Made by a program: the position numbers and the translations under genes
The notes under the pieces: generated by a model
Database searches by the model: none
Told to the model about the DNA's origin: nothing
Seen by the model: the letters and a program-made list of their open reading frames with translations, nothing else
Assembly (NCBI GenBank): GCA_963806645.1
Contig: CAWDYQ010000002.1
Location: 11,141 to 75,140 of the forward strand
Direction: 5' to 3'
Length of the DNA: 64,000 nucleotides
Origin: Candidatus Bathyarchaeota archaeon
GTDB taxonomy: Archaea; Thermoproteota; Bathyarchaeia; Bathyarchaeales; Bathyarchaeaceae
Part shown: piece by piece, positions 16,779 through 18,078 of the stretch
Layout: each line of letters starts with the position of its first letter
How positions within the stretch are numbered: the first letter of the stretch is position 1

Positions 16779-17801
16779 ATGAGAAGAATCAATGAACCAT
16801 GGAAAATAAATCGAAGCATGGTAGTCAAAGCTGAGGAAGAAACCAACATGCGTTTTGGCTGCAAACCAGACGAACGTCCAATTAAAGATCACATACGATT
16901 TGGAATAATAAACGTGGACAAACCTGCTGGACCATCAAGCCATGAGGTTACAGCATGGGTTAAACGAATCCTCAGTTTCGAAAAAGCTGGTCATGGCGGG
17001 ACCCTTGAGGCCTAATCTGGCCGGGGAAATCCCAAAGTTACCGGCGTTCTACCCAATGCAATAGAGGATGCTACAAAAATAATTCAGGCTCTTCTGCTAG
17101 CAGGTAAAGAATACGTTTGTGTAATGAAACTACATTCTCAAGTTTCAGAAGATCGCGTAAAAGAAGTTTTAGATGAATTTCAGGGACCATTATACCAACG
17201 GCCCCCAGTTCGTTCTTCGGTTAAACGAAGACTTAGAACAAGAACAATCTACTATAATGATTACTATGAGATGGATGGAAAAAATGTCCTCTTCAAAGTT
17301 GGATGCGAAGCTGGAACATACATCAGAAAACTGTGCTACGACATCGGTGAGGCCCTAGGTTGCGGAGCCCACATGCAAGAGCTAAGAAGAACAAGAGTTG
17401 GACCATTTATTGAAGACGAAAGTTTAGTCACTCTACATGATATTACTTATTTGTATAGTCAATGGCAGGAAACTAAAGATGAAAACCTGCTAAGAAAATT
17501 CATTTATCCCATGGAAAAAGCCTTAGAACTGATGCCAAAAATCCATATACGAGACTCAGCGGTAGACGCCCTATGTCACGGAGCACACTTAACAGCACCA
17601 GGAGTAGTTTCACTAGATTCAGGAATAAAAATCGGCGACCAAGTAGCGGTCCTGACCCAGAAAGGAGAAGCGATAACATTATCAAAAGCCTTTGTTTCCA
17701 GCGAAAAGATACTTAACATGGATCATGGATTCGTAGCAAGAACTGAACGGGTTATGATGCCCCGCGGTATCTACCCTAAGATGTGGCACAGCAATGCTTG
17801 A
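16779..17801 (+). CDS. cbf5: tRNA/rRNA pseudouridine synthase Cbf5 (TruB + PUA domains), coding sequence interrupted by a 21-nt BHB intron
   Basis: ORFs 16779..17015 and 17124..17801 are in the same frame. Joining 16779..17007 to 17029..17801 gives 334 codons with KAGHGGTLDPKVTGVLP, AGKEYVCVMKLH, QRPPVRSSVKRRLRTR, GTYIRKLCYDIG and a PUA C-terminus. Confidence 0.9.
17008..17028 (+). other. bulge-helix-bulge intron in cbf5 pre-mRNA (predicted)
   Basis: Hand fold of 16998-17033. Outer helix GGGA/TCCC; central helix CCCT/GGGG; 3-nt bulges TGA and AAA; inner helix GGCC/GGCC with loop TAATCT. Cutting after the second nucleotide of each bulge restores the codon GAT (Asp). Confidence 0.7.
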
Positions 17802-17856
17802 AACTACTTTGTTTCGAAAAGACTAAAAACAGGTTAATTGCTATTCTACAGGTTGT

Positions 17857-17996
17857 GCCGAGGTGTCCTAGAGCATCTTGCGGGAAATCTGGTAGGGAGC
17901 AGATTCCAACAAAGGAAGCTAAAGCCTGGAATCTCTGACTACGGTAAGCCTGTGATCCATTGGGTCGCGAGGGTTCAAATCCCTCCCTCGGCGCCA
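17857..17996 (+). tRNA. intron-containing tRNA gene with encoded CCA; identity unresolved (tentatively class II Ser-GGA; alternative Trp-CCA)
   Basis: The acceptor stem is 7 bp: GCCGAGG (17857-63) with CCTCGGC (17986-92). The T arm is GAGGG-TTCAAAT-CCCTC (17969-85). The discriminator is G, followed by CCA. At 140 nt the gene carries about 50 nt more than a mature tRNA. Confidence 0.8.
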
Positions 17997-18078
17997 TAAT
18001 TAAAAATTTGTTTAAACACTTATGTAAAAGTTAGAAACATCTGATCCTAGACGGCTACTTAATATTTTTATTAAAAGT

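Follow-up and report, generated by a model that had tools for sequence, protein, structure and literature searches.

A bathyarchaeal tRNA-Ser(GGA) gene with three predicted BHB introns downstream of cbf5

A locus of 140 nt directly downstream of cbf5, contained in a window of 64,000 nt (the whole stretch of DNA that was analysed), is by its sequence a real tRNA gene, as had been observed before, and one for serine. It is very probably the only tRNA-Ser(GGA) gene of its genome, with a promoter of its own and with three protein-spliced introns that would be processed by EndA and RtcB. The host assembly comprises 7 contigs with 1.69 Mb in total and a G+C content of 36-40% per contig, and the nearest neighbour of the host by Cbf5 similarity is Candidatus Bathyarchaeum, within Bathyarchaeia. 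The original prediction, which had been made from the window sequence, is partly supported by the present analysis.

The locus and its detection by standard finders

The features of the locus are given in window coordinates, and for the gene also on contig C2.

17857-17996 (C2:28997-29136), plus strand: tRNA-Ser(GGA) gene with three predicted BHB introns, 140 nt
17812-17829, plus strand: promoter-like BRE/TATA box TTTCGAAAAGACTAAAAA, 28-45 nt upstream of the tRNA 5' end
18007-18013, plus strand: T-rich stretch TTTGTTT, 11 nt past CCA, read from the sequence

The ends of the gene were found where the original prediction had placed them. The acceptor stem is formed by GCCGAGG (17857-63) and CCTCGGC (17986-92), the T arm GAGGG-TTCAAAT-CCCTC (17969-85) lies directly 5' of the acceptor 3' strand, and G73 (17993) is followed by an encoded CCA (17994-96). 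The surplus sequence within the gene was measured as 52 nt, in agreement with the about 50 extra nucleotides claimed previously.

The unspliced gene escaped the standard finders. No tRNA was reported in it by ARAGORN with or without intron mode, zero tRNAs were reported in the whole 64-kb window, and the gene was also missed when ARAGORN was run in intron mode on the whole genome. Rfam gave no match in the unspliced gene at the gathering threshold, and at E<=10 the T arm alone was matched, to unrelated families. Our own covariance model, trained on 28 spliced single-intron orthologues, matched the variable arm, the T arm and the acceptor 3' strand with 29.9 bits through a local end; it failed to bridge the three inserts and thus gave no independent placement of the introns. 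By a SPLITS-like search, in which BHB candidates were removed and ARAGORN was run afterwards, introns 1 and 2 were recovered, while wrong variants of intron 3 were ranked first, so that the motif score alone is not specific.

The box TTTCGAAAAGACTAAAAA sits right behind the cbf5 stop codon. In the close relatives L001-L014 the box CGAAAAGACTAAAAA is nearly invariant and is found at the same distance from the tRNA start, and distant relatives carry a related AAAAAG-(N)2-TAAAAA box. From this we infer that the box at 17812-29 serves as promoter. Archaea are known to terminate transcription at oligo-T tracts, and TTTGTTT at 18007-18013 is likely to be the stop signal.

Two further observations concern the surroundings of the gene. 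A 73-aa ORF on the minus strand (17776-17997), antisense to the tRNA gene, is an artefact of the ORF listing. The upstream cbf5 gene is itself interrupted; when 21 nt (17008-17028 or 17009-17029) are taken out, the sequence GHGGTLDPKV with the catalytic Asp is regained.

Gene model and spliced product

The first gene model was obtained by aligning the target by eye to the genome's own tRNA-Ser(GCU) gene, which reads GCGGGGT-TC-TCCT-AGCCTGGTA-GGGA-G-CAGGC-CTGCTAA-GTCTG-T-GGTCC... The model consists of four exons.

17857-17871, plus strand: exon 1, positions 1-15; acceptor GCCGAGG, U8, G9, D-stem 5' strand UCCU, A14, G15
17888-17902, plus strand: exon 2, positions 16-29; UCUGGUA, D-stem 3' strand GGGA, G26, C27 A28 G29
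17924-17931, plus strand: exon 3, positions 30-37, 8 nt, GCCUGGAA; G30 C31, C32 U33 G34 G35 A36 A37
17947-17996, plus strand: exon 4, positions 38-76; A38, anticodon-stem 3' strand GCCUG, U44, variable arm GAUCC-AUU-GGGUC, GC, T arm GAGGG-UUCAAAU-CCCUC, acceptor CCUCGGC, G73, CCA

The anticodon GGA is carried by the 8-nt exon 3. The spliced 88-mer, GCCGAGGTGTCCTAGTCTGGTAGGGAGCAGGCCTGGAAAGCCTGTGATCCATTGGGTCGCGAGGGTTCAAATCCCTCCCTCGGCGCCA, was identified by ARAGORN as tRNA-Ser(gga) over bases 1-88 with every stem paired, and its fold contains a 4-bp D stem, a full anticodon stem, the 7-nt loop CUGGAAA and a 5-bp variable arm. As expected of a BHB-spliced tRNA gene, removal of the introns yields a canonical cloverleaf with an anticodon loop of 7 nt in the ARAGORN fold. 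The long variable arm of 5 bp, G73 and the anticodon GGA characterize the product as a class II tRNA-Ser. Its D arm corresponds almost base for base to that of the genome's Ser(GCU), TCCT-AGCCTGGTA-GGGA-G-CAGGC, and its variable arm resembles those of both Ser(GCU) and Ser(UGA).

A scan based on the acceptor stem and the T arm revealed just four class II genes with G73 in the genome, namely Ser GCU, UGA, CGA and GGA. A second Ser(GGA) gene was not found in the 7 contigs, with 8% of the genome being unassembled. Of the codons in 427 long ORFs, 21.4 per 1000 are UCU or UCC.

Introns and their splicing motifs

Splice sites were assigned according to the BHB rule, by which two bulges flank a 4-bp helix and the cut is placed after the second base of the 3-nt bulge; the rule was checked on the canonical Lys(UUU) intron of the same genome. 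A BHB motif, in the full or in a relaxed form (hBH or HBh'), was found for all three introns.

17872-17887, plus strand: intron 1, 16 nt, between positions 15 and 16 (D-loop), relaxed BHB (HBh')
17903-17923, plus strand: intron 2, 21 nt, between positions 29 and 30 (anticodon stem), full hBHBh'
17932-17946, plus strand: intron 3, 15 nt, canonical position 37/38, relaxed BHB (hBH)

Intron 1 has a complete central helix (4/4) of UCCU (17866-69) and GGGA (17882-85), the bulges AGA and AAU, an inner hairpin GCA-UCU-UGC of 3 bp and an outer helix of 1 bp. Its excision gives the D arm TCCT-AGTCTGGTA-GGGA. Among the three-intron genes every position of the central helix is paired (100%), and A-U pairs of the inner helix are exchanged for C-G. 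The intron is present in 30 genes including that of the window and is missing at the exact junction in 35 orthologues, which read TCCT-AG-TCAGGTA-GGGA across it. Together with the Ser(gga) call for the spliced 88-mer, this lies well beyond coincidence.

Intron 2 is bounded by an outer helix of 4 bp, UAGG (17893-96) with CCUG (17925-28), and by the bulges AGA and AAG. The central helix (G)AGC (17897-900)/GCU(A) (17918-21) has three of four pairs and a G.A mismatch in the host genome, versus 4/4 in relatives (GCUC, GCUU or GUUC), and the inner hairpin UUCC-AACAAA-GGAA contributes 4 bp. Compensatory double changes were seen at all four pairs of the inner helix; the outer helix is invariant exon sequence and lies outside the reach of covariation. 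Intron 2 is present in 29 genes including that of the window, and 34 orthologues lack it at the exact junction.

The motif of intron 3 is weak. Its central helix CUG(G) (17926-29)/(A)CGG (17941-44) has 3/4 pairs (three pairs and a G.A), the 3' bulge is UAA, the 5' splice site lies in a loop, and there is no inner (intron-side) helix. The exon-side helix is the anticodon stem, with 2 bp as long as intron 2 is in place and with 5 bp plus G26.U44 afterwards. One-sided changes preserve three of the central pairs across the 27 three-intron genes, and the fourth is unpaired in 23 of them. Intron 3 was detected in 59 parsed genes and by eye in two more (L013, L051), and it is absent from L032 and L036, which read CUGGAGAGCCUG.

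Pairs were counted in a MAFFT alignment of the 27 three-intron genes, with the tRNA stems and the motifs of introns 1 and 2 as the structure. In this alignment 97.5% of the cells are paired, versus 37-55% after a shift of the 3' partners by 1-3 columns, figures that constitute support and not proof, since the sequences share ancestry and one of them was the source of the structure. Changes on both sides occurred at 8 pairs, including all four of the intron 2 inner helix.

Orthologues downstream of cbf5

In a search with the C-terminal exon of Cbf5 against one genome per species, 80 bathyarchaeal loci were collected. The tRNA gene is located downstream of cbf5 in 62 of them, which gives 63 genes together with that of the window. 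Intron 3 (37/38) alone is carried by 31 of the 63 genes, and these single-intron orthologues read ...TCCT-AG-TCAGGTA-GGGA-G-CAGGC-CTGGAG[intron]A-GCCTG... All three introns are present in 27 genes, the window's among them. The remaining genes have two: introns 1 and 3 in two genes (L033, L050), introns 2 and 3 in one (L063), and introns 1 and 2 without intron 3 in two (L032, L036; CTGGAGAGCCTG). Each of the three introns thus shows presence and absence among the 63 syntenic genes. The exon junctions are identical in all 63, with spliced products of 88-90 nt, and these shared junctions fix the intron boundaries independently of any splicing motif. Exons are nearly invariant across the 63 genomes, while intron loops are free to vary and intron helices covary.

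For the single-intron orthologues L060 and L034 the Rfam tRNA model gave 45.0 and 43.3 bits (threshold 29), and the D arm, anticodon stem and variable arm that it assigned coincide with those of the present model; it misses orthologues bearing non-canonical introns. A Cbf5 tree places the genome of the window in a clade (SH-aLRT 96) of at least 20 genomes, throughout which the three-intron state is fixed. The minimum number of state changes on this tree is 4 for intron 1, 3 for intron 2 and 1 for intron 3, counts that are rough since the tree is based on a single gene with 224 columns.

Splicing enzymes

Two genes with the tRNA-intron endonuclease catalytic domain (PF01974) were found in the genome, with 96.5 and 77.4 bits, and both EndA paralogues also bear the N-terminal domain.

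C5:19736-20293: EndA paralogue of the crenarchaeal alpha type, 185 aa; closest PDB entries 2cv8 and 3p1z_B
C2:289370-289891: EndA paralogue, 173 aa; closest to the Methanocaldococcus jannaschii enzyme

The beta subunit of the crenarchaeal alpha2beta2 EndA has lost the catalytic residues. The paralogue on C2 retains the residues aligned with Tyr, His and Lys of the M. jannaschii enzyme, which we take to be its catalytic triad, and the corresponding residues are kept in the C5 paralogue as well. By its sequence the C2 protein looks like the homotetramer type of M. jannaschii and not like a crenarchaeal beta subunit.

The paralogue on C5 is nearest to the catalytic subunits of Sulfolobus tokodaii (E = 7e-39) and Aeropyrum pernix (E = 6e-37). 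Its segment GYYGKPLGIPKPK aligns to the Aeropyrum loop GYYGQPLDVEKPR, with K and K opposite K44 and R46. This Crenarchaea-specific loop with K44 and R46 confers broad specificity on EndA, cleavage of a D-loop intron included, and the broad-specificity enzyme also cleaves bulge-helix-loop substrates (PMC3241643). The expectation that the lineage has an endonuclease of the broad-specificity type is thereby borne out by an EndA alpha with both basic residues in the loop (PMC3241643). The RtcB ligase is present with 576 bits, so the genome encodes a splicing endonuclease predicted to act at non-canonical sites as well as an RNA ligase.

Proposed maturation and order of splicing

EndA cuts BHB motifs, RtcB ligates the halves, and RNase P and 3' trimming finish the ends. 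For the present gene, transcription from its own promoter downstream of cbf5 would give a precursor with a body of 140 nt and three introns. EndA would cut the splice sites in the 3-nt bulges, or in bulge and loop, flanking the 4-bp helix, and the exons would be joined by RtcB to an 85-nt class II tRNA plus the encoded CCA.

Formation of the D stem would be blocked in the primary transcript. The 5' strand of this stem would be paired with a GGGA decoy (17882-85) inside intron 1, and its 3' strand would be taken up in the motif of intron 2 (U20-C27), by the outer and the central helix. Because the former motif uses the 5' strand and the latter the 3' strand, both can coexist, and together they would keep the D stem open.

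Introns 2 and 3 are predicted to have mutually exclusive motifs. The outer helix of intron 2 (U20-G23 with C31-G34) would compete with the central helix of intron 3 (C32-G35), C32-G34 being shared, and the full exon-side helix would be acquired by the intron 3 motif solely after removal of intron 2. With both introns cut and ligation still to come, two base pairs would be all that keeps the 8-nt exon 3 in place. The overlapping motifs and the 8-nt exon between the two introns argue that excision of intron 2 and religation probably precede the cutting of intron 3, the basis of this order being only the overlap of predicted helices. Cases in other archaea in which one intron must leave before the next motif forms have been described by the tRNAscan-SE 2.0 authors (PMC8450103).

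It is also conceivable, though less likely, that the introns of this same gene are removed in no fixed order or with intron 3 first. With intron 2 in place the intron 3 motif would still have two exon-side G-C pairs, which is the published minimum (PMC7714728), and bulge-helix-loop substrates are within the range of a broad-specificity EndA (PMC3241643). However, C32-G34 would be needed by the intron 2 outer helix and the intron 3 central helix alike, the 8-nt exon would depend on just 2 bp once both introns were cut, and the dependency reported for other archaea (PMC8450103) speaks for intron 2 leaving first.

The MFE fold of the precursor contains the BHB of intron 1. The intron 2 motif is absent from it and the region of introns 2 and 3 is occupied by a long AGAUUCC/GGAAUCU helix, with -52.3 kcal/mol for the MFE fold versus -38.0 for the structure with the motifs of introns 1 and 2. 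Beyond UUCC/GGAA this helix is unconserved among the relatives in the 27-gene alignment, and it was therefore treated as incidental.

Alternative readings of the locus

A decaying pseudogene or relic, in which the inserts would represent damage and not introns, is highly improbable. The blindness of the standard finders to the gene would fit such a relic, but it is at odds with the nearly invariant exons in 63 genomes, the covarying intron helices, the conserved promoter box upstream and the fixation of the three-intron form in a clade of at least 20 genomes. In addition, UCU and UCC are frequent codons, and a Ser(GGA) gene was found nowhere else in the 7 contigs. The pseudogene reading was rejected.

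The original prediction of a three-intron tRNA was borne out by the Ser(gga) fold of the 88-mer and by the orthologue junctions, and its identity as a class II Ser(GGA) with G73 by the ARAGORN call and by the orthologues, all of which are Ser(GGA). ARAGORN, which had been named as a check, missed the unspliced gene and accepted the spliced 88-mer as tRNA-Ser(gga). The first intron was correctly drawn at 17872-17887 (15/16) with the BHB geometry described above; its removal restores AGUCUGGUA, and it is at this place that 35 orthologues lack it.

The remainder of that Ser model has to be replaced. It had paired CAGA plus G with CUCUG (17933-37) around an 8-nt loop, with a second intron of about 20 nt at 30/31, a third in the variable region and a 1-nt insertion or error at 17925-26, and in this form it can practically be discarded. 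CAGA (17900-03) and UCUG (17934-37) are able to pair, and the region lies in a helix of the MFE fold. The splice product of the model, however, came out of ARAGORN as a poor Gln(ctg)-like fold with one more intron, of 8 nt, and orthologues without introns 2 and 3 read CAGGC-CUGGAGA-GCCUG, by which 17933-37 is intronic; these junctions refute the 8-nt-loop model. The anticodon-stem 3' strand is instead GCCUG (17948-52), the second intron is that of 21 nt at 29/30 (17903-17923), the third is canonical at 37/38 (17932-46), and no insertion is required, the loop CUGGAAA having its normal 7 nt.

Least credible of all is a tRNA-Trp(CCA) with the loop UUCCAAC (17904-09 plus 17933) and a 23-nt intron at 37/38: UUCC (17904-07) and GGAA (17928-31) could form a 4-bp helix, and with intron 1 alone removed ARAGORN gave a forced Trp(cca) with a 38-nt intron and a mismatched stem, but G73 and the 5-bp variable arm are class II Ser features, the anticodon is GGA in 62 of 62 orthologues, UUCC and the CCA triplet lie inside intron 2, which is missing in 34 orthologues, and the true tRNA-Trp of the genome (A73, anticodon loop CUCCAGA), located at C7:43054-43278, splices to a perfect Trp(cca). 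The splice products of both earlier models were poor Tyr- or Gln-like folds in ARAGORN that needed more introns.

Other interrupted tRNA genes in the genome

At least 17 other tRNA genes with introns were found, so that 18 genes are interrupted including Ser(GGA). As a rough lower bound, at least about 26 introns are present in about 39 detected tRNA genes, with provisional boundaries for Met, Leu(UAA) and Tyr; several isoacceptors, His among them, were not found among these about 39 genes. For the over-long tRNA candidates that were worked through, each spliced product was accepted by ARAGORN. One non-canonical intron, with a central helix of 4 bp, is present in each of Val(CAC), Phe(GAA), Gly(UCC), Lys(CUU) and Arg(UCG). 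The tRNA-Arg(CCU) gene (C2:293972-294115, minus strand) has introns of 27 nt at 9/10, 22 nt at 29/30 and 17 nt at 37/38, and in its unspliced form it was miscalled by ARAGORN as Ser(tga) with a 70-nt intron.

Introns at 29/30 are found in four tRNAs, namely Ser(GGA), Gly(UCC), Arg(UCG) and Arg(CCU).

C1:405835-405924: tRNA-Gly(UCC) gene with a 29/30 intron
C2:452119-452221, minus strand: tRNA-Arg(UCG) gene with a 29/30 intron
C2:293972-294115, minus strand: tRNA-Arg(CCU) gene with a 29/30 intron
Window 17903-17923: the 29/30 intron of tRNA-Ser(GGA)

In all four the 3' part of the intron pairs with the host's own positions 24-27, and G22 G23 and C31 C32 U33, which are common to the four hosts, supply the exon-side helix. 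No similarity of the transposition type was seen among the four introns beyond a shared 5'-terminal A and the host-specific pairing strand.

The tRNA-Trp(CCA) gene (C7:43054-43278, minus strand; locus L083) has a length of 225 nt and four BHB introns, of 29 nt in the D-loop, 31 nt at 28/29, 60 nt at 37/38 and 28 nt at 43/44, each with a 4/4 central helix. Its spliced 77-mer is a perfect Trp(cca) for ARAGORN, and its orthologues carry the 37/38 intron alone or varied subsets of the four. Euryarchaeal tRNA-Trp introns carry a box C/D guide. The 60-nt intron resembles such a guide by analogy, with ATGACGA and CTGA boxes and an element TTCTGGAG complementary to the gene's own anticodon loop CTCCAGAA; no Rfam family matching this intron was found. 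A 5S rRNA gene (Rfam 71.9 bits; L083 1816-1935, plus strand) is located about 90 nt from tRNA-Trp on the opposite strand.

The tRNA-Tyr(GUA) gene (C1:380767-380925, 159 nt) was recognized by C1-G72, A73 and the anticodon arm AGATG-CTGTAGA-CGTCT. The intervening sequence of about 82 nt is divided over two or more sites, one following position 26 and one within the variable region, and the boundaries as drawn are not BHB-consistent.

Significance and comparison with known systems

The main value of the Ser(GGA) gene lies in annotation, and the ordered splicing is a side question. The gene fills a decoding gap, as the genome is otherwise apparently without a tRNA for UCU and UCC. Since genes of this kind are missed by routine annotation with ARAGORN and Rfam, the tRNA complement and completeness estimates for Bathyarchaeia come out too low. 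The series of one-, two- and three-intron orthologues offers a clean natural experiment on the gain and loss of archaeal tRNA introns, and the overlapping motifs around the 8-nt exon provide a concrete substrate for the question of a fixed order in multi-intron pre-tRNAs.

A wider reading is put forward tentatively, as quite possible but short of probable: that the Bathyarchaeum tRNA set is among the most interrupted outside Thermoproteales and Asgard archaea (three introns in Ser(GGA) and Arg(CCU), four in Trp, recurrent 29/30 introns in four tRNAs), and that it includes a fixed folding pathway in which intron decoys hold the D stem open and mutually exclusive motifs force intron 2 out before intron 3, protecting the 8-nt anticodon exon.

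The three-intron Ser(GGA) gene is a known archaeal oddity, with no new type of element or mechanism. Among archaea, two or three introns per tRNA gene are well documented for Thermoproteales and have been noted in Thaumarchaeota (PMC4033280, PMC8450103, PMC4090602); the Thermoproteales cases include Pyrobaculum calidifontis, Thermofilum pendens and others (Sugahara et al. 2007/2008, as reviewed in PMC4033280 and PMC8450103). A full-text search of a limited literature collection found no papers on tRNA introns in Bathyarchaeia. The present gene is like those of Thermoproteales in having at most three short BHB or relaxed-BHB introns at canonical and non-canonical positions, in neighbouring motifs that may form one after the other and in a host EndA of the crenarchaeal type. 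It differs from them in lineage, the host being a mesophile-type organism with 38% G+C and a Bathyarchaeum-like genome.

A D-loop BHB intron is likewise found in pre-tRNA-Thr2(UGU) of Aeropyrum pernix, where it is removed by the alpha2beta2 EndA whose alpha subunit has the K44, R46 loop (PMC3241643). That pre-tRNA has a single intron and its cleavage was shown biochemically (PMC3241643), whereas the splicing of Ser(GGA) is predicted from sequence. The BHB intron of crenarchaeal cbf5 pre-mRNA is a substrate of the same enzyme and has its counterpart here in the neighbouring upstream gene; it lies within a protein-coding gene and is separate from the Ser(GGA) tRNA. In Asgard archaea up to five intervening sequences per tRNA gene have been reported (bioRxiv 10.64898/2026.10.13.758758). 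As in that group, many tRNA genes of the present genome are interrupted and missed by annotation tools, and gain and loss can be traced via orthologues (10.64898/2026.10.13.758758); in contrast to it, the host belongs to another phylum and has a lower intron density, on the rough count of introns given above.
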